Shown piece by piece: positions 5,436 to 62,312 of a stretch of 64,000 nucleotides of DNA (the stretch's first letter is position 1; each line of letters opens with the position of its first letter). Below the pieces are notes generated by a model. It ran no database searches. It was not told where the DNA came from and saw only the letters and a program-made list of their open reading frames with translations. The stretch spans positions 10,664,001 through 10,728,000 of the forward strand of contig NC_043010.1 in NCBI RefSeq assembly GCF_006345805.1, written 5' to 3'. The translations under genes and the position numbers were made by a program. Source of the stretch: Octopus sinensis. Lineage: Eukaryota.

Positions 5436-5481
<46 letters not shown>

Positions 5482-5655
5482 GCCGGTGGCACGTAAAAAG
5501 CACCCACTACACTCACGGAGTGGTTGGCGTTAGGAAGGGCATCCAGCTGTAGAAACACTGCCAAAATCAGACTGGAGCCTAGTGCAGCCAGTCTGGCTTC
5601 CCAGACCCCGGTCAAACTGTCCAACCCATGTTTGCATGGAAAACGGACATTAAAC

Positions 5656-5686
<31 letters not shown>

Positions 5687-14296: not shown

Positions 14297-14420
14297 ATCT
14301 GATCTGGCAGCTGTAGAACACTGCCAATCAGACTGGAGCCTGGTGCAGCCTTCTGGCTTCCCGATCCCCGGTCAAGCCGTCCAACCCATGCTAGCATGGG
14401 AACGGACGTTAAACGATGAT
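14297..14420 (+). mobile_element. Family C (RTE 3' end) fragment
   Basis: CCGTCCAACCCATGCTAGCATGG..ACGGACGTTAAACGATGAT. Confidence 0.75.
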
Positions 14421-18060: not shown

Positions 18061-18210
18061 AAAATCAACAAAAATGATTAATAGAATAAGTTCATAGCTT
18101 AAAAATAATAAGTTGATTCATTTAGCTAAAAATTCTTCAAGGCAGTTTACCATCGTAACAGTAGTCTGATGAATGAAACAAGTAAATTAATAAAAGAATA
18201 TATGTGTGTA

Positions 18211-19440
18211 TCATCATCATCATCATCATCATCACCATCTTTTAATGCTCGCTTTCCATGCTGGCATGGGATGGACGGTTTGACTGGGGACTGGTGAGCC
18301 AGATGGCTGCACCATGCTCCAGTCTGATCTGGCAGAGTTTCTACAGCTGCATGACTTCTTAATGCCAACCATTCTGAGAGTGCAGTGGGTGCTTTTACGT
18401 GCCACCGGCATGAGGGCCAGTCAGGCAGTACTGGCAACAGCTACGCTCAAATGGTGTTTTTTACATTGCTACCAGCACAGGACCCAGTCCAGCAGCCCTG
18501 GCAATGACCTCGCTCAAATGTTGTTTTTCACGGGCCATCGGTCAGTACAAGTGCCAGTAAGGCTATGCTGGTAATGGTCATGCTTGAATGATGGTTTTTA
18601 CATGCCACCAGCATGGGAGCCAATTAGTGGCACTGGCAATGATCATGCTCGGATGGTACTCAAGGGTGGCAAGCTGGCAGAAACGTTAACGCACCGGATG
18701 AAACGCTTAGCGGTATTTCGTCTGTCGTTACGTTCTGAGTTCAAATTCCACCGAGGTCGACTTTGCCTTTCATTCTTTCGGGGTCGATAAATTAAGTACC
18801 AGTTACGCACTGGGGTCGATGTAATCGACTTAATCCGTTTTTCTGTCCTTGTTTGTCCCCTCTGTGTTTAGCCCCTTGTGGGTAGTAAAGAAATAGGTAC
18901 TCTTAGCGTTCCACTAGCACCGATGCTAGTCAGGTGGTACTGTTATCGGCCACATCAGCGAATTTGATTTCAATTTCATTTGCCTCAACACGTCTTCACA
19001 AGTAGAGTTTAGTGTCCAATGAAAGAAAGGTATGCATAAGTGGGCTGGTTACACCCCTGTCATAGGCCATGAGCTATGGTCTCACTTGGCTTGCCAGGTC
19101 TTTCCAAAGGTCTCGGTCACTAGTCATTGCCTTGGTGAGGCCTAATGTTTGAAGGTTGTGCTTCACCACCACATCCCAGGTCTTCCTGTGTCTACCTCTT
19201 CCACAGGTTCTCTCAACAGTTAGGGTGTGACACTTTTGCACACAGCTATTCTCATCCATTCTCACCACATGATTATACCAGTGCAGTTGTCTCTCTTGCA
19301 CACTACATCTGATGCTTCTTAGGTCCAACTTTTCTCTCAAGGCACTTACACTTGGTTGTGTATGCATACTGACATTACACATCCAGCGGAGCATACTGGC
19401 TTCATTCCTTGCAAGCTTACACATATCCTCAGCAGTCATG
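18211..19440 (-). mobile_element. 5'-truncated RTE LINE: ORF C-terminus (19074-19440) plus a 3' UTR with diverged ~60-bp repeats and a (GAT)n tail; parent of family C
   Basis: EASMLRWMCNV...LREKL...QERQLHWYNHVVRM...GRGRHRKTW...DRDLW is a typical RTE C-terminus; it continues into the family C tail. Confidence 0.8.
18662..18895 (+). mobile_element. SINE family B nested in the RTE 3' UTR
   Basis: Full B unit; GGTACTC duplicated at both ends. Confidence 0.85.
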
Positions 19441-25504: not shown

Positions 25505-26460
25505 GAGTCAGCTTCTTAAAATTGATCATGGGATATTAACATTCAACTCAAGACTTCAGCTACTTGAAATTACATGCGGTCAAATGATACTTTCTCTTAG
25601 GAATCTTGTGGATAAAGTATTTCCTAATTTATCTGTCAATTACACTGGCATAAACTGGCTAATTAAAACAGCTACACTAGCTCCATCTAATGAAATGATT
25701 AATAAACTCAACTATGAACTTCTTCAAAAGTTAAGAGATAGGCGCAGGAGTGGCTGTGTGGTAAGTAGCTTGCTAACCAACCACATGGTTCCGGGTTCAG
25801 TCCCACTGCATGGCATCTTGGGCAAGTGTCTTCTGCTATAGCCCCGGGCCGACCAATGCCTTGTGAGTGGATTTGGTAGATGGAAACTGAAAGAAGCCTG
25901 TCGTATATTTGTATATATGTATATATGTACGTGTGTGTTTGAGTGTGTGTTTGTCTCCCTAGCATTGCTTGACAACCGATGCTGGTGTGTTTACGTCCCC
26001 GTACTTAGCGGTTTGGCAAAAGAGACCGATAGAATAAGTACTAGACTTACAAAGAATAAGTACCGGGGTCGATTTGCTCGACTAAAGGCAGTGCTCCAGC
26101 ATGGCCGCAGTCAAAATGACTGAAACAAGTAAAAGAATAAAAGAGATACATCTGAAATGACTTTTCGATCAATTGATAACAGTCGATCAAGATCAGGATG
26201 TTCAATACCCTGTTAAATTTCTGAACTCACTTCAATCCACTGGCATGGCACTGCATAACTTGACACTAAAACTGGGTGCTCCCGTTATGTTGCTTAGAAA
26301 TCTTGACCCATCTCACCTGTGTAATGGAACTTGCTTAATTGTTACTTCTATGAAGCCCCATGTCCTACAAGCAACAATCATAACAGGTAGTCACAAAGAA
26401 GAAAATGTCTTTATTCCAAAAATTCCTCTCATACCTACAGATGTTCCCTTTGAATTTAAG
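25505..26460 (+). pseudogene. Helitron RepHel PIF1-helicase remnant interrupted by SINE A (25741-26147)
   Basis: LVDKVFPNL...WLIKTATLAPSNEMINKLN...YPVKFLNSLQSTGMALHNLTLKLGAPVMLLRNLDPSHLCNGTCLIV...VFIPKIPLIPTDVPFEFK are classic Helitron helicase motifs. Confidence 0.85.
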
Positions 26461-26497
26461 ATACACACAAAAGCATATATATATATATATATATATA

Positions 26498-26750
26498 TCA
26501 TCATCATCATCGTTTAACGTCCGCTTTCCATGCTAGCATGGGTTGGACGATTTAACTGAGGACTGACGAACCAGATGGCTGCGCCAGGTTCCAATCTGAT
26601 CTGGCAGAGTTTCTACAGCTGGATGCCCTTCCTAACATCAATCACTCCAGGAGTGTAGTGGGTGCTTTTACGTGCCACCGTCACGAGGGCCAGTCTGGTG
26701 GTACTGGCAACAGACACGCTTGAAAATGGTGTTTTTTACGTGCCAGTTGC
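26498..26750 (-). mobile_element. Family C (RTE 3' end)
   Basis: (CAT)n CGTTTAACGTCCGCTTTCCATGCTAGCATGGG... Confidence 0.8.
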
Positions 26751-26814
26751 ACACACATATATATATATAATATACATATTTTTGCCAACTAAATATATAT
26801 AATACAGATACATG

Positions 26815-31199: not shown

Positions 31200-31960
31200 T
31201 ATGCTTGTGTATTGCATTCATTGATTATGAAAAGGTCTTTGATACAGACCGATAGAATAAGTACTAGGCTTACAAAGAATAAGTTCTGGGGTTGATTTGC
31301 TTGACTAAAGGTGATGCTCCAGCATGGCCGCTGTCAAATGACTGAAACAAGTAAAAGAGTAAAAGAGTGTTGAGATGAATATCATCATCATCATCATCAT
31401 CATCGTTTAACGTCCGCTTTCCATGCTGGCATGGGTTGGACGGTTCAACTGGGGACTGGGAAGCCAGAAGGCTGCACCAGGCCAGTCAGATCTGGCAGAG
31501 TTTCTACAGCTGGATGCCCTCCTAATGCCAACCACTCCGTGAGTGTAGTGGGTGCTTTTTATGTGCCACCGACACCGGTGCCAGACGAGGCTGGCGAACG
31601 GCCAGTAAATGCAAGGTGTTGAGGTACAAATGTGAAGTATGCATGTTCAACAGATATAGCTCTGCTATAACCACAGGTGAAGGTTCCAATTGGAAAGGGT
31701 GTCAAATAAGGAGTCGCCATGTCTCCAAGGCTTTTTACTGCATGTCATGAAATAGTCATCAGGGACATTGACCAGACAGGAGGCATGAGCATCATTGGCA
31801 AGCAACTAATGCACCTCCAATCCACAGATGGTATCGTACTTATTGAAATCACAGATCAGCTGCAAACTACACTGACAGAGATGAATACCCATAGCTTAGC
31901 AGTAGGCCTTAAAATAAACCATAAAAAAACAAAATATATGTGGTTGGAAGATGTAGAACA
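31200..31960 (+). pseudogene. RTE reverse transcriptase remnant interrupted by a SINE A 3' fragment (31246-31368) and a family C copy (31381-31605, minus)
   Basis: LCIAFIDYEKVFD...GKGVK*GVAMSPRLF...LMHLQSTDGIVL...GLKINHKKTKYM. Confidence 0.75.
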
Positions 31961-33871: not shown

Positions 33872-35320
33872 ATGCTAAAGTTTATGTACCACAAAATGTG
33901 GCAGTCCTATAAAGGATGATGTTACTGTCGTTTTAGCCCCGGGAAAGCATCTTTTCCAGCTGGCCACTGACACACAGTCTGTGTCCGTATATCATTTGCA
34001 AAAGAGGTCATCGTTCCCATCTCTAGCCTTACATGATACTCAAAGACGTAGGATTCTGGTTACCCATCCTCACTGTGAGAAAACCACAAGCTAGTGATGA
34101 AAGCTCTCCCCACTCACAAATACTATATATTCTTTAAGTGACACACAGTCGCTGATCTCTTATAGTGACAAACAATTTGTTTTAGATCTCTGAGCAAGAG
34201 ATATACAGCAACAGTACCAGATAGTAAAGTTTATTTGCCAACAGAATGTGGCAATCCTTTAAAGGACGATGTTACTGCTATTTTAGCCTTGGGAAAACTT
34301 ATCTCCAGCTGGCTATTTGTCACACATTCTGTGTCCGTATAGCATGTGCAAGGGAGGTCATCGTTCCCATCTCTAGCCTCCCACCTTGTTTTTAATGTAC
34401 GGTTGCAGTACTGAAATGTGTGTGTTTGGAGGACTAGAATGGAAGGTTTTGTGTCAGGGTCCTTCATCTCTGGCCCCGGTTTGCTGTCTTACTTCAGATA
34501 CCATCCGAAGAGCAAGATGGGGTTGGAGAAGAAAACCCTGTCACCGAGTGAATACGAGAAACGATGGAAAGATGTGATGAGAAAGGTGGGTGTCAGTAAC
34601 CCAGCTTAATCATTGATTAAAGGAAAAGATAGTTGCTGGGACTTATAGGCTACTGGGTTCGATCTTTTTTAACTTTTATTCGTTTTCTTTCTTTGCTTTA
34701 GTTTTTAAAAAAAGTTGTATTTTAAGGTAAAAATTAATCGCTAGCGCCGCCTTGGCTGGCTTCCGTGCCAGTGGCACGTTAAAAGCTCCAACCGATCGTG
34801 GCCGATGCCGGACACCCCTGGCACCTGTGCAGGTGGCACGTAAAAAGCACCCACTACACTCGCAGAGTGGTTGGCGTTAGGAAGGGCTTCCAGCTGTAGA
34901 AACTCTGCCAACTCATGCTAGCGCGGAAAACGGACGTTAAACGATGATGATGATGATGATGATAAAATATTTTTTAAGTAAATTTTTAACAAAATGCTCA
35001 TTTGAACTCATTTAACATTTTTGTATTTGTTTGTCTTGTAATGTCCTTTTCTATGTACGATCAGTTTGATCATAAAGATTTTATCTCTAGCCTTCCATGA
35101 TACTCACAGACCTACGTTTCTAGGTTTCCTTGCTAGCTTGCAGTTTTTCATACTGAGGACGGGTAACCACCTAGAAACCTAGGTCTGTGATTAACACGTT
35201 AGGCTAGAGATGGGAATGATGACCTCCCTTAAAAATGCTATATGAACACAGACTGCTAAAACAACAGTAACATCGTCCTTTGTAGGACTGCCACATTCTG
35301 TTAGCATATAAGTTTTACTA
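33872..35320. mobile_element. Foldback MITE family related to 29506-29816: partial copy 33872-34085 and full copy 34222-35320 with insertions
   Basis: TAGTAAA.TT.AT.TGC.AACAGAATGTGGCA.TCCT inverted termini; TTAGCCC..GGAA.GCATC motif shared with the 29.5-kb element. Confidence 0.7.
34384..35082 (+). mobile_element. 5'-truncated Tx1/L1-like LINE 3' end with TSD; contains a family C copy (34741-34962)
   Basis: CVWRTRMEG...GPGLLSYFRYHPKSKMGLEKKTLSPSEYEKRW resembles a Tx1/L1 ORF2 C-terminus; TSD ATCTCTAGCCT(C/T)CCA at 34369-34383 and 35083-35097. Confidence 0.55.
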
Positions 35321-43305: not shown

Positions 43306-43755
43306 ACAATCCTTATAGTATTAAAAACGCTTTCTACATTGGCAGAAGGCCACAAATTCGTAGGACACTACCCTTTAAGTTGGGCTAGAGGACCATCTTT
43401 TGAGCCTAATTTCTACAGCTAGGTGCCACTTTACAGAGTGCATTATATCACTAGTGAGTCTCTACGTTGTCTCTTGTTTATAAACCACTTTACAATTTAT
43501 GACACCAACACTTGTGTGCTTGCCTTCTGCCTTGCTAAGACTAAAGGACTTTCAATACTTTATACTGTGTCCAATACCTTAACACCATGTGATCAAAAAT
43601 TTAAATAGTAAAGAGAGTTATAACAGGAGAAAACAAGTTTTATAAAATGTAAAATATTTGTGAAATAGCAATACCTGGAAACAGTTATCCTGTGTGTAAA
43701 CACTAAGAACATTTTTGCTCTTTTCTCTCAATTGTTAAATTAGTAATGCTCTATG

Positions 43756-44263
43756 GTATGGCCTGGTCAGCCTGTAATGACATGCATAAGATCTGGTCAT
43801 CAAATCTAAGTAGAGACTTCAAACTTGAAATCTTCAAAGCCACAGTCGAACCAATTCTACTATATGGCTCAGAAACCTGGATGTTATCAAAGAAGCTTGA
43901 GAAGTGGTTGGATGGAACCTACACTCACCTCCTTATGAGAGCTCAAAATCTCTCGTGGAAGCGCCATCCAACTAAAATGCAAATATATGGGAAACTACCA
44001 CATGTGTCATCTCTTGTGAAAGGTAGGAGAGTCCAGTTTGCTGGACATTGTTGTAGAGCTGAAAACGAGGCAATTTCTACTCTTCTCCTCTGGAAGCCAT
44101 CTACTTGCAATACTAGAGGGCACACACTCTCCTACCCTGATGTAATCTCCAGGTATACAGGCATCCAGCAACAGGACCTCCGTAATGCCATGATGGACCG
44201 TGAAGTCTGGTGTAGCATGGAAAATTCCATTGTCTCGACCACGGTCAAACAATGATGATGATG
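43756..44263 (+). mobile_element. 5'-truncated RTE-clade LINE with an uninterrupted ORF C-terminus, (TGA)n tail and 11-bp TSD
   Basis: KIWSS...KLEIFKATVEPILLYGSETW...RRVQFAGHCCR...MMDREVW; TSD AATGCTCTATG at 43745-43755 and 44264-44274. Confidence 0.85.
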
Positions 44264-44756
44264 AATGCTCTATGAAGAAAAAGAGAAAAAAAACACACAC
44301 TCACACATTCCATGAATTCCTTCCAGACCATAATTATTATCTCTCTATAAGAATTTTCTTGCTTCATAAAATGTTTAATTACTCAATATATCTTAGGTTA
44401 TATCATGCTGAAGATTTCTAAACAGAATGAAATAGTACAATAAGTGATTAGTACTGACTAAAAATTTTAAGAACGTTGTAATAAGTAGACTAAAAATTAA
44501 AGAAAATTAAATATATAAATTCTATTTTCTTATTCCGTAATTTCAAATTCAAAATTCTAACACTGCCAAATATCATGGAGAAATGATTATTTCCCTTTTA
44601 ATAACTGTCCTGTGGGGACAAATGGGATTTGGAAATATGCTGTGTAATAATCTTGAGGTCTAGAGGCCACAACAAACAATAACAACAAACATAATCTGAG
44701 GAATATTTCCCTTTCACAAGTATTAACCTATTGACATTTAAACGCCTGCGCCTATA

Positions 44757-45164: not shown

Positions 45165-45482
45165 ATATGTAAAAATTTTTTAAATAGCATCCTGGGGTAG
45201 TATTGATTTACCAGTATCAGTTGTGATGTTAAAAGGTTGGAAACCTCTGCATGAGATGGAGCCATAGTGTAGTATTAAAAATGCTTTACTACACTGGCAG
45301 AAGGCCACAAATTCGTAGGGTATAAATAAAGTTGGCTTATCAAGTGCTCTTCATGCCTCATAAATATTTTATCTTCCTGCAAGGTTTTTCACTCCAGAAA
45401 CTTGAATATGAAAGCAAACACGAGTCACGTATTTGATACTTTACTGTTTCAGACACTTCATCACTGTTTCTATAGCATTCAA

Positions 45483-45803
45483 TCATCATCATCATCATCA
45501 TCGTTTAACGTCCGCTTTCCATGCTAGCATGGGTTGGACGATTTGACTGAGGGCTGGTGAACCAGATGGCTGCACCAGGCTCCAATCTGATCTGGCAGAG
45601 TTTCTACAGCTGGATTCCCTTTCTAGCGCCAACTACTCTAAGAGTGTAGTGGATGCTTTTACGTGGCACCGGCACGAGGGACAGTCAGGCGGTGCTGGCA
45701 ACGACCTTACTCGAATGTTTTTACACATGCCACTGGTGCAAGTGCCAGTAAGGCGACACTGGTAATGATCACACTCGAAAGGTGCCTTTTACGTGCCACT
45801 GGC
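45483..45803 (-). mobile_element. Family C (RTE 3' end with 2-3 repeat units)
   Basis: (CAT)n tail and GTGGCAC/GTGCCAC units. Confidence 0.8.
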
Positions 45804-46055
45804 GGTTTAACAAAATTAGTAGAGTATGGGAGAAATTGTCATGTGAAACTTGATTATACAACTTTAAATTTAGATTTCAAATCCCATTGTGATCAACTAT
45901 GTTTTATATCTTTTTGGAGTCAATAAGTTAAATACTGGAGTTAATGAAATCAACTATGCTCGACACCCTAAATTCAAAGTCATGTGCCTGTTTCATAAAC
46001 CTAACAATGATTCAAAGAAAAATGTACAAGTAAACTCAGTGCTTAAATTATATAT

Positions 46056-46474: not shown

Positions 46475-46982
46475 TTTTATTATCAATAAAATATATAACA
46501 GAATGTCTAAAACTGAAAGCATGACTTCGAATATGTTTGACTGGTGGACAGGATGTTTGATATAGAAGTTTAGTGGCATACTACTTGAAAATAGTACTTT
46601 CGGAACTTGCTTTGTGTATACATAAGTGATATTTCAACAATATTTCTCACATTTCCAGGAACTTGTCTACTAAAATGGCATCAAACTATAAAACATCACA
46701 GTTTCAGCAAATCTATAAATGGAAGTGATGGACACTTAATAGGTAAAACTATCTCCTGTCAGAATTGAAACAAAATGATCAAAGAGCTGACTCAAATTAA
46801 ACATTATGTGTTTATCAATGTGATATGTGTAGGTGATTATACCACCATATTTAATGGAATATAAGGCATACTTTCCTTCAAAAAACAAGAGATGTCTCAA
46901 AAGCTCACCTTAGGTCCGATATATGAAGTTGGGTCAATATTATATGCTTTAATGTTCAACAAATATTTTTCTCATAGCCACC

Positions 46983-49320
46983 GCCCCCGTGTTGGTGGCA
47001 CGTAAAAGCACCATCCGTTCGTGTCCGTTGCCAGCCTCGCCTGGCCCCCGTGCCGGTGACACATAAAAGCACCATCCGTTCGTGGCCGTTGCCAGCCTCA
47101 CCTGGCCCCCGTGCCGGTGACACGTAAAAGCACCATCCGTTCGTGGCCATTGCCAGCCTCACCTGGCCCCCGTGCCAGTGACACGTAAAAGCACCATCCG
47201 TTCGTGGCCATTGCAAGCCTCACCTGGCCCCGTGCCGGTGAACATAAAAGCACCATCGTTCGTGGCCATTGCCAGCCTCACCTGGCCCCGTGCCGGTGAC
47301 ACGTAAAAGCACCATCCGTCGTGGCCATTGCCAGCCTCACCTGGCCCCCGTGCCGGTGACACATAAAAGCACCATCCGTTCGTGGCCATTGCCAGCCTCA
47401 CCTGGCCCCCGTGCCAGTGACACATAAAAGCACCATCCGTTCGTGGCCATTGCCAGCCTCACCTGGCCCCCGTGCCGGTGACACATAAAAGCACCATCCG
47501 TTCGTGGCCGTTGCCAGCCTCACCTGGCCCCCGTGCCGGTGACACATAAAAGCACCATCCGTTCGTGGCCGTTGCCAGCCTCACCTGGCCCCCGTGCCAG
47601 TGACACATAAAAGCACCATCCGTTCGTGGCCATTGCCAGCCTCACCTGGCCCCCGTGCCGGTGACACATAAAAGCACCATCCGTTCGTGTCCGTTGCCAG
47701 CCTCACCTGGCCCCCGTGTTGGTGGCACGTAAAAGCACCATCCGTTCGTGGCCGTTGCCAGCCTCACCTGGCCCCCGTGCCAGTGACACATAAAAGCACC
47801 ATCCGTTCGTGGCCGTTGCCAGCCTCACCTGGCCCCCGTGTTGGTGGCACGTAAAAGCACCATCCGTTCGTGGCCGTTGCCAGCCTCACTGGCCCCCGTG
47901 CCAGTGAACACTAAAAGCACCATCGTTCGGTCCGTTGCCAGCCTCACCTGGCCCCCGTGCGGGGACACATAAAAGCACCATCCGTTCGTGGCGTTGCCAG
48001 CCTCACCTGGCCCCCGTGCCGGTGACACATAAAAGCACCATCCGTTCGTGGCCGTTGCCAGCCTCACCTGGCCCCCGTGCCGGTGACACATAAAAGCACC
48101 ATCCGTTCGTGGCCGTTGCCAGCCTCACCTGGCCCCCGTGCCGGTGACACGTAAAAGCACCATCCGTTCGTGGCCGTTGCCAGCCTCACCTGGCCCCCGT
48201 GTTGGTGGCACGTAAAAGCACCATCCGTTCGTGGCCATTGCCAGCCTCACCTGGCCCCCGTGTTGGTGGCACGTAAAAGCACCATCCGTTCGTGGCCGTT
48301 GCCAGCCTCACCTGGCCCCCGTGTTGGTGGACAGTAAAAGCACCATCCGTTCGTGTCCGTTGCCAGCCTCGCCTGGCCCCCGTGCCGGTGACACATAAAA
48401 GCACCATCCGTTCGTGGCCGTTGCCAGCCTCACCTGGCCCCCGTGTTGGTGGCACGTAAAAGCACCATCCGTTCGTGGCCGTTGCCAGCCTCACTGGCCC
48501 CCGTGTTGGTGGCACGTAAAAGCACCATCCGTTCGTGTCCGTTGCCAGCCTCACCTGGCCCCCGTGCCGGTGACACGTAAAAGCACCATCCGTTCGTGTC
48601 CGTTGCCAGCCTCGCCTGGCCCCCGTGCCGTGTGACACATAAAAGCACCATCCGTTCGTGGCCGTTGCCAGCCTCACCTGGCCCCGGTTGGTGGCACGTA
48701 AAAGCACCATCCGTTCGTGTCCATTGCCAGCCTCGCCTGGCCCCAGTGCCGGTGACACATATAAAAGCACCATCCGTTCGTGTCCGTTGCCAGCCTCACC
48801 TGGCCCCCGTGTTGGTGGCACGTAAAAAGCACCTCCGTTCGTGTCCGTTGCCAGCCTCTTCTGGCCCCCGTTGTGGTGGGACACGTAAAAGCACTATCCG
48901 TTCGTGTCCGTTGCCAGCCTCACCTGGCCCCCGTGCGGTGACACATAAAAGCACCATCCGTTCGTGTCCGTTGCCAGCCTCGCCTGGCCCCCGTGCCGGT
49001 GACACGTAAAGGCACCATCCGTTTCGTGGCCGTTTGCCAGCCCTGTCTGGCCCCCGTGCCGGTGACACGTAAAAACACCATCCGTTCGTGTCCGTTGCCA
49101 GCCTCACCTGGCCCCCGTGTTGGTGGCACGTAAAAGCACCATCCGTTCGTGGCCGTTGCCAGCCTCACCTGGCCCCCGTGTTGGTGGCACGTAAAAGCAC
49201 CATCCGTTCGTGTCCGTTGCCAGCCTCGCCTGGCCCCCATGCCGGTGACACGTAAAGGCACCATCCGTTTCGTGGCCGTTTGCCAGCTCTGTCTGGCACC
49301 TGTGCAGGTGGCACGTAAAA
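46983..49320 (+). repeat. GC-rich minisatellite, ~38 copies of a 61-bp unit, forming the 5' part of a family C retroelement
   Basis: Unit GCCCCCGTG(CC/TT)GGTG(A/G)CAC(A/G)TAAAAGCACCATCCGTTCGTG(G/T)CCGTTGCCAGCCTCACCTG. Confidence 0.95.
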
Positions 49321-49496
49321 AGCACCCACTACACTCACGGAGTGGTTGGCGTTAGGAAGGGCATCCAGCCATAGAAACACTGCCAGATCTGACTGGGCCT
49401 GATGAAGCCTTCCAGCTTCACAGACCCCAGTTGACCCGTCCAACCCATGCTAGCATGGAAAACGGACACTAAATGATGATGATGATGATGATGATG
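49321..49496 (+). mobile_element. Family C tail terminating the VNTR
   Basis: AGCACCCACTACACTC...GGAAGGGCATCCAGC...CCAACCCATGCTAGCATGG...(GAT)n. Confidence 0.85.
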
Positions 49497-49599
49497 TGCT
49501 GCTGGGATTGGTGGTGTTGGTGTTTAATATTACTGTTCGTCTTTTATGCCATCAAATAGGATAATTGTTGCAGAGAGCTCTGGATCTGTATGTTAAAAT

Positions 49600-49800
49600 C
49601 TACAGCTTCTGAACCAACTGATTTCTGGAGAATGAAGTGTGAGTGCTGAGAGAAGTTTGAGAATATTGAAGTCACTGAGAATGAGGACTTCAGAGGGAGG
49701 AGATGTACCGAGTGTGTCCTTGATGCAGAAAAAATGAGGGCTTATTGAAGATGTGAGGAATTAAGAGAGTCATAGTGATAGAAGCAGAACATATATTTAC
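49600..49800 (-). pseudogene. Possible LINE APE-endonuclease remnant
   Basis: Minus strand SEVLILSDFNI resembles the ILGDFN motif; highly decayed. Confidence 0.3.
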
Positions 49801-56407: not shown

Positions 56408-56722
56408 TCAGATCATCCCATAAGTTCTGTTTGATTTTACCTTTTTTTAAATTGAATGAAATTTAATAGTATTTCAGAATGTCTAATGGAATTAAAAATT
56501 ACTTTTATGCATTTGTGTATGTTTAAACTAATTAAATATTATTTTACAGAATAATAAAATTAAAATTTCTTTGATTAAAACCCTATCTAACAGGGAAGTA
56601 TCCAAAGAGCATTTGAGGCACATAGTACTTTATGAGTACAAAAAAGGAAACTCTGCAGCCGAAGCGACTCGAAACATGCACTCAGTTTATGGGAAAGAAT
56701 GCTTGAATGAAAGAACTTGCAT
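56408..56722 (+). pseudogene. Mariner transposase 5' region / N-terminal HTH remnant
   Basis: EVSKEHLRHIVLYEYKKGNSAAEATRNMHSVYGKECLNERTC (56595-56720). Confidence 0.75.
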
Positions 56723-57086
56723 TTAATCAGGTTCTCTAATGATTCAGCCAATTTTTCATTCACCTGAAGTAAATACAGTATTAAAACATCAGGCAGATTT
56801 GAACTCATGATATATGAAATAATGGTCTAACACCATATCCACTTAACCAATTAGTTTTCATTTATAAATTTATGGTACACACACACACACACACACACAT
56901 GCTCGCACAAATATACACACAAATGCACATACACACATACCCACACACATGTATATGAGTGTGTTATTGCTTTTATATCTGTGTGTGTGTGCTTTCTGTG
57001 TAAATGTTGCCTGTTTTTGTGTTTATACGTATTCACAAATGCATACATTCATACATACATTCATATACACACACACGTTATATGTA

Positions 57087-61759: not shown

Positions 61760-62312
61760 ATCAAAATCACATTCGATGACTGGCATCCGTACTAGCAGGG
61801 TGCAAAGAGCTCCATATGAGCGTGATCGTTGACAGAGCGGCTAACCGACTTCCATGCCAGTGGCACATAAAAGGCACCATTCGATTGTGATCATTACCAG
61901 CGTTGCCTTACTGGCACTTGTGCCCGTGCTAGTAGAGTGCCAAGAGCACCATCCAAGCGTGATCATTGCCAGAGCAGCCAACTGGCTTCCATGCCAGTGG
62001 CACGTAAAGGAGCACCATTCAAGCGTGATCATTACCAACGTCACCTTACTGACATCTGTGCTGGTGGCATGTGTAAAAAGATTCGAGCAAGGTCGTTGCC
62101 AGTACCGCCTGACTGGCCCCCGTGCCAGTGGCATGTAAAAAGCACCCACTACACTCTCAGAGTGGTTGGCATTAGGAAGGGCATCCAGCTGTAGAAACTC
62201 TGCCAAATCAAGATTGGAGTCTGGTGCAGCCTTCTGGTTCACCAGCCCTCAGTGAAAATCGTCCAACCCATGCTAGCATGGAAAGCAGACGTTAAACGAT
62301 GATGATGATGAT
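61760..62312 (+). mobile_element. Long family C copy with about 6 diverged ~60-bp units
   Basis: Repeated GCCAGTGGCAC.TAAA..GCACCAT..GTGATCATT.CCAG units, then the standard tail and (GAT)n. Confidence 0.8.

Follow-up and report, generated by a model that had tools for sequence, protein, structure and literature searches.

We analyzed a 64,000-nt stretch of the Octopus sinensis genome (the window, to which all positions below refer) and located a minisatellite at positions 46983 to 49326 of its plus strand, for which TRF reported a period of 61, 38.5 copies, and 91% matches. Counting of unit anchors gave 38 units (61-bp type A, except for two type B units of 62 to 63 bp close to the 3' end), and the mean pairwise identity among 34 full units was 91.3%. 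The array has a GC content of 63% and a CpG observed/expected ratio of 0.84, compared with 36% and 0.55 in the remaining window, and it contains 188 CpGs, compared with 77 in the best other 2.3-kb stretch of the window. It is truncated at its 5' end inside a unit, with the LINE ORF absent upstream, and directly adjoins the unique 3' tail of an RTE family (49322 to 49472, plus strand), which has 4 differences over 150 bp when compared with the majority sequence of 52 young tails. The tail contains a two-helix stem-loop (49437 to 49468, plus strand), predicted from covariation over 21 sequences to be an RT recognition signal, and is followed by a terminal (ATG/GAT)8 repeat, lettered (ATG)8 at 49473 to 49496 (plus strand). 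This organization agrees with what a sequence-only reading of the window had described, namely, about 38 GC-rich 61-bp units running into the family tail and (GAT)n.

The unique 5' flank and its junction with the array (46480 to 47012, plus strand; no TSD) were recovered as a single contig in three of four sequencing runs (X2, X4, and X5, from three studies), with 2, 0, and 0 differing letters, respectively. The fourth run, X7, spans just 46611 to 46787 at a depth of 2, and any of the four may be the assembly's own sample. The runs were compared as short-read contigs, which break inside the array, and the array length given here is that of the assembly. No allelic or haplotig copy of the 3' flank was found in the genome, and no empty allele of the window insertion was seen. 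The 3' flank (49497 to 49800, minus strand), which by motif is presumably an old LINE endonuclease remnant, matches weakly at two other places in the genome.

A domain scan of 126 of the 139 unmasked ORFs of the window detected no host gene around the array, and it returned just fragments of Helitron Pif1 and of a mariner HTH, plus a single UBA match below the threshold. Among these, a Pif1 2B domain fragment at 26161 to 26514 (plus strand; E = 1e-17) is likely a Helitron remnant, and a mariner transposase HTH fragment lies at 56532 to 56723 (plus strand; E = 1.4e-15). A 182-aa C-terminal remnant of a second, distant RTE-like ORF lies at 43707 to 44255 (plus strand; DUF6451, 5e-4), and we take its LYGSETW motif to be of the RTE type. 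By eye, we also noted a possible signal-peptide frame with GT at its end (44584 to 44658, plus strand) and an exon-like 84-nt open AG...GT segment (46660 to 46743, plus strand); the frames scanned that overlap these two stretches had no Pfam match. The array could be intronic.

The window holds further members of the same family. An older subfamily copy at 18203 to 19427 (minus strand) consists of an ORF C-terminal remnant (19077 to 19427), followed by a 3' UTR with about five diverged units, the tail, and (GAT)n, and its UTR is split by an insert of about 210 bp (18671 to 18880) that the sequence-only reading had not noted. The ORF remnant is 74% identical to the C-terminus of the young element (E = 7e-57), which bears out the proposal that the unit occurs in the 3' UTR downstream of an RTE ORF at 18.2 to 19.4 kb. 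At 61770 to 62312 (plus strand), a 3' UTR of the older subfamily carries a tail and five diverged units, which are 64 to 88% alike in the subfamily majority sequence. The truncated members comprise an older one with two to three diverged units and a tail (45482 to 45815, minus strand), one with two units and a tail carrying an internal deletion (34741 to 34963, plus strand), one with a single unit and a tail (31383 to 31604, minus strand), an older one with one to two units and a tail (26497 to 26760, minus strand), and one lying within (TA)n that retains the end of one unit and the tail (5479 to 5686, plus strand); a further member lies at 14308 to 14420. The members starting at 31383, 26497, and 14308 were absent from the sequence-only reading. 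Diverged units had been expected in four of these members, and they were found in those starting at 34741, 45482, and 61770, whereas the member at 5479 has just the last 20 bp or so of a unit.

We characterized the carrier element by searching its own genome with the tail (best 40 of 2965 candidates scored, 20 loci fetched), the array (best 40 of 3382 candidates scored), and the ORF end (best 40 of 3592 candidates scored, 30 fetched). Copies with both borders have a common anatomy, consisting of an ORF (endonuclease, RT, and PHD-like finger), a 50- to 90-bp spacer, n units, the 150-bp tail, and (GAT)n. In the copy at locus L068, the ORF matched Exo_endo_phos (7e-07), RVT_1 (3.9e-31), and a PHD-like finger (5e-4), and the closest database relatives of the element ORF are 50 to 55% identical. 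The sequence common to the copies starts about 250 bp upstream of the ORF, and no second long ORF (ORF1) was found in this shared part. Members of the RTE clade are described as having one ORF, with AP endonuclease and RT, and no ORF1 (PMC13295347); the octopus element likewise has a single ORF with AP endonuclease and RT, and it ends in a short tandem repeat, (GAT)n, in the 55 copies listed. RTE 3' UTRs are usually short (PMC1291365), a trait that is typical and not strictly defining. The relatives of the element also have short UTRs, whereas the stop-to-tail distance of the element is 386 to 1003 bp in young copies and reaches 4.7 kb.

TSDs have been reported for SR3 and Bov-B and are variable across the RTE clade. 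In an empty/filled pair of the octopus element, we observed a loss of 1 to 2 bp and AT microhomology and no TSD, the window copy has no TSD, and among the copies examined long matches occurred solely in (TA)n-type flanks. In 27 of 55 copies, the sequence passes into a (TA)n-like stretch. The idea of dating the expansions by TSDs was thus unusable, since neither the empty/filled pair nor the window copy has one. Among 19 copies selected by the tail, 10 have their 5' end within the units, and one more stops at an N gap. The window insertion is a 5'-truncated copy of this young RTE LINE.

The lineage has a counterpart in Octopus bimaculoides. Additional file 10 of Petrosino 2022 (PMC9115989) is a variant table that gives reference and alternative letters for a polymorphic RTE, RTE8BF6ALB220127, and 78 of 81 variant sites taken from its rows match L068 at one offset (60 as the reference and 18 as the alternative letter), which places the two elements in the same lineage. 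All 45 sites of the first block match, compared with 35 at the next-best offset. This match to an element published as an RTE would indirectly support our RTE placement. The 3,206-bp consensus corresponds to positions 785 to 3990 of L068, about 90 nt short of the stop codon; therefore, the minisatellite UTR falls outside that consensus, and no minisatellite is described with this element in the accessible part of PMC9115989. Identity with another element of that study, RTE-2_OV, was rejected, as none of four primers matched within 4 mismatches in 10 loci. The octopus copies thus complete the 3' end of the polymorphic lineage and provide many candidate length markers, and short-read insertion calling with a UTR-less consensus would overlook copies made of units plus tail.

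The unit is abundant. A 16-mer of the young unit has 11,569 exact matches in the genome (control, 0), and extrapolation from the first 100 of these unit cores listed gives an estimate of about 6,700 loci. The element has probably scattered thousands of unstable repeats through the genome. For array comparison we used a young set of 30 copies picked on ORF-end identity alone, whose mean private divergence of 0.38% is biased low by this choice; two copies without a tail in the locus were dropped, and one with a tail deletion was kept for its array string. The stop-to-tail distance, measurable in 27 of the 30, varies in steps of about 62 bp. All 28 array strings, of 5 to 17 units each, are different, even between copies diverged by 0.07 to 0.2%. 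They can be read as paths along one ordered series of unit types (j/k-g-m-d-a-b-i/l-f-h-e-c), with skips and block repeats, and the first and last units are fixed throughout. Copies selected by length have 19 to 29 units behind an ORF (L061, L063, L066, and L072), and the longest array among the best 40 of 3382 candidates, at L054, has 77 units and 4.7 kb; longer ones may be collapsed or unscored. Hence the proposal that an RTE LINE 3' UTR carries a unit whose number varies widely, up to arrays of kilobases, was upheld, with a range of 5 to 77 units across copies.

An old, diverged subfamily and the young, homogenized one coexist in the genome. In the older subfamily, the length of the UTR is constant (535 to 548 bp in 30 copies), a result that is biased because these copies were selected on the whole UTR. 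No rise of UTR length with ORF divergence was detected (rho = -0.13, p = 0.55, n = 22).

A segmental duplication allowed us to follow one insertion across paralogs. The 77-unit array is flanked by segmentally duplicated sequence with 12 paralogous sites, 9 of which are empty and 3 filled. The filled paralogs share a 3' junction and contain 10, 11, and 77 units. All three carry the tail variant 45C>T, which was seen in 3 of the 52 tails sampled (including that of L054), and they have one 3' flank haplotype, which also occurs on three empty sites. Therefore, if the assembly is right, one insertion changed its length without an RNA step. L054 carries a 5' deletion and retains a leader unit that both paralogs have lost, and its contig is unplaced, so that the evidence from the trio depends on the assembly. 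No allelic or haplotig copy was found for locus L056. As a side observation, the segment at 4.8 to 8.8 Mb of contig C30 and on unplaced contigs (L147 to L157) has at least 12 copies with 93 to 98% identity, which differ by element insertions.

Variants private to single arrays are also repeated within them. A CpG-to-CpA variant, CTC(A)CC, was found in 26 of 32 scored units of the window array and in 2 of 240 units of 61 other arrays (alignment-based calling placed it in 5 of 62 arrays), and the neighboring CpGs of the window units that bear it are untouched. A 76-mer over two variant units has four matches in the whole genome, all in the window array. Besides, all four gametes were present at 9 of 15 site pairs in this array, which therefore points to several rounds of exchange, and private non-CpG variants are repeated inside the arrays of L072, L063, L064, and L059. 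The nearest other array, among the best 40 of 3382 candidates, is 92% identical to that of the window. From the differences among arrays, the trio of 10, 11, and 77 units, and the CpG variant whose tandem form is confined to the window array, we conclude that the long arrays most likely grew in place. Separately, the private CpG changes of the window copy (46983 to 49475) are all G>A on the plus strand (about seven events, none C>T); a strand-biased deamination across the family was rejected, since young ORFs show 11 C>T and 9 G>A changes at CpG.

Based on these results, we consider it probable, at roughly three chances in four, that the window array belongs to a young RTE LINE inserted with a truncated 5' end and reached its 38 units by repeated duplication at the DNA level after insertion. 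Starting from the anatomy given above, the RT would recognize the terminal stem-loop and prime on (GAT)n against AT microhomology, leaving no TSD, and the units would be passengers that are copied first; many truncated copies would therefore consist of just units and tail. The five units of the older subfamily may be too diverged for misalignment, and the young lineage would have homogenized its units to about 87 to 100% identity, making the array unstable. After insertion, slippage or unequal exchange among units would duplicate and delete blocks and spread locus-private CpG mutations along the array, a process that is observed in the one paralog trio and presumed for the window locus.

The main alternative is that the RT jumps between near-identical units during copying of the RNA, so that each insertion, long ones included, is born with its own array. 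The distinctness of all 28 young arrays, the absence of a trend of length with age, and inversions within units at some 5' ends (L013, L058, and L059) agree with this. Moreover, in some arrays of 11 to 19 units nearly all private changes are singletons (15 single and 1 shared in L066, 7 and 0 in L057, and 13 and 1 in L076), which fits a length change at or soon after insertion. However, RT jumping offers no way to multiply mutations acquired after insertion, and private variants are nevertheless amplified; the paralog trio was altered without an RNA step; and de novo integrants of LAVA showed no VNTR change (PMC4432496). We thus regard RT jumping as an unlikely origin of the long arrays; the short ones may have changed in length at insertion or shortly afterward, RT jumping being one possible route.

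Growth could instead have preceded insertion, with an array already long in the source element and copied whole. Near-complete copies that have both an ORF and 19 to 29 units do exist (the four length-selected loci named above), but the window signature was found in no sibling, all four genomic matches of the 76-mer being within the window array, and the best other array is just 92% identical to it, which makes a long source quite improbable.

Each unit had been described as containing a mini-hairpin, GTG(CC/TT)-GGT-G(G/A)CAC, followed by an A-run, and the hairpins had been suggested to bind RT or another protein; the array would then be a selected multimer of functional sites. The motif and A-run are indeed present in nearly every unit of the window array, the palindrome CGTGCC-GGT-GGCACG and the arms GCCAG...CTGGC are kept in old and young subfamilies while the loops vary, and one haplotype has two compensatory pairs. 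The commonest form, a haplotype that accounts for 220 of 950 units, nevertheless has a C.A mismatch in the stem. Over 50 haplotypes covering these 950 units, 86.7% of cells were paired, compared with 87.9% in shuffles, and there was no covariation, so that the unit hairpin was rejected as a conserved structure. Folding of the unit was not significant against shuffles (z of -1.1, -1.6, and +0.1), the motif was not formed in the predicted folds, and no Rfam family matched. A weak likeness of the type B unit to part of the tail (12 of 1,000 shuffles in one of three tests) would suit a binding site, but derivation of the unit from the tail was not accepted. The units are absent, furthermore, from distant relatives: we examined 79 metagenome loci with 37 to 60% amino acid identity, and no comparable minisatellite was found in any of the 29 with at least 150 bp of sequence after the ORF. 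A single long-period repeat occurs among these 29; it lies 1.2 kb downstream and resembles a zinc-finger array. We therefore hold a binding role for the unit hairpins to be very improbable.

Within 50 to 100 nt, many of these relatives terminate in a stem-loop of two helices that resembles the final 40 nt of the octopus tail. We aligned 21 sequences, 2 from the window and 19 from relatives; the 19 were chosen by a pattern favoring the outer helix, 2 of 21 candidates failed, and about 13 others end differently. In this alignment 91.9% of cells were paired, compared with 76.9% after shuffling, and there were 37 double changes, compared with 14.4 (reached in 0 of 500 shuffles), a count that is inflated by relatedness. 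Pairing of the inner helix played no part in the choice of sequences, and double changes occur at four of its five pairs. On two weaker measures, the number of pairs with a double change and of further pair types, the stem-loop was not above shuffles. The resemblance extends to ZfL2, a stringent LINE that has a terminal stem-loop ahead of a short tandem repeat (Hayashi et al. 2014, PMC4176376). The RT site of ZfL2, an L2-clade element, was demonstrated by assay, whereas that of the octopus RTE is proposed by covariation alone. Given its covariation across distant RTEs without the repeat, and the parallel with stringent LINEs, the stem-loop before (GAT)n is the likely RT signal, likelier than the unit hairpins. 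In several relatives (L163 to L237), the ORF passes through the terminal stem-loop and stops in a (TGA)n tail, leaving almost no 3' UTR.

Finally, an artifactual expansion of the array by the assembly, for which one could cite that the array length is known from the assembly alone and that scattered 1- to 3-bp indels resemble consensus errors, is extremely improbable, because the array has 29 different units among 37, no exact repeat longer than 149 bp, and no N, which is unlike a copied assembly segment, and because variants are polarized along the array, the 5' junction is present in three runs, and comparable long arrays occur at many other loci.

The array had also been likened to the VNTR of SVA elements, a comparison that holds for its behavior and not for membership. 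SVAs have a poly(A) tail and TSDs, whereas the octopus array occupies the 3' UTR of an RTE that is autonomous, terminates with (GAT)n, and shows no TSD. As in SVA and LAVA, the VNTR is GC rich, with ordered unit types and conserved ends (PMC4432496). In those elements, a duplicate-locus test traced changes in unit number to the DNA level, and no RT-level change was seen in cell assays (Lupan et al. 2015, PMC4432496); the octopus paralogs with 10, 11, and 77 units likewise show DNA-level remodeling. SVA is, however, a nonautonomous, composite, primate-only element that is driven by L1 and has a central VNTR (PMC4432496). Membership in SVA was rejected, because the octopus repeat follows the RT ORF of its own element, an autonomous single-ORF LINE, and is not part of an L1-mobilized composite.

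The 3' UTR repeats of plant Ogre/Tat LTR elements are similar in being hypervariable, in having an autonomous carrier with which they are dispersed, and in being occasionally expanded (PMC7004042). They differ in that Ogre/Tat are plant LTR elements with very long satellite arrays (PMC7004042), whereas the octopus carrier is an animal element of non-LTR anatomy whose longest array seen is 4.7 kb. Retroelement-borne tandem repeats are thus already known from SVA and plant Ogre elements. In the literature outside Repbase, Dfam, and two sources that may contain the UTR (the PMC13282606 repeat library and two large PMC9115989 files), we came across no account of an autonomous LINE with a hypervariable minisatellite in its 3' UTR, and the octopus UTR minisatellite was not found in the accessible parts of PMC13282606, PMC12988792, and PMC5786205. 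Since the LINE makes its insertions dateable, these loci amount to a naturally replicated experiment on how minisatellite growth is driven by unit identity, age, and location.

A bolder reading, which we regard as possible and rather doubtful, is that a recently active octopus RTE lineage acts as a factory of minisatellites: the RT would reshuffle the units at each insertion, giving every array a unique barcode, and array length or CpG content would feed back on the element, through silencing or through the frequency of reaching the ORF, and on nearby chromatin. If this were true, thousands of dateable loci would reveal how a stable, diverged repeat becomes hypermutable in the germ line and possibly in neurons.

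Several minor features of individual copies were also observed. The 5' UTR of the LINE at L061, L063, and L069 contains a short internal direct repeat, about 65 to 70 bp apart, and the 3' flank of L063 (contig C8846) is a multicopy palindromic or tandem repeat found on many unplaced contigs. Inverted unit arrays lie at the 5' ends of L059, L013, and L058; at L059 the arrays are head to head, each with its own tail-side orientation, an arrangement like twin priming within the minisatellite.
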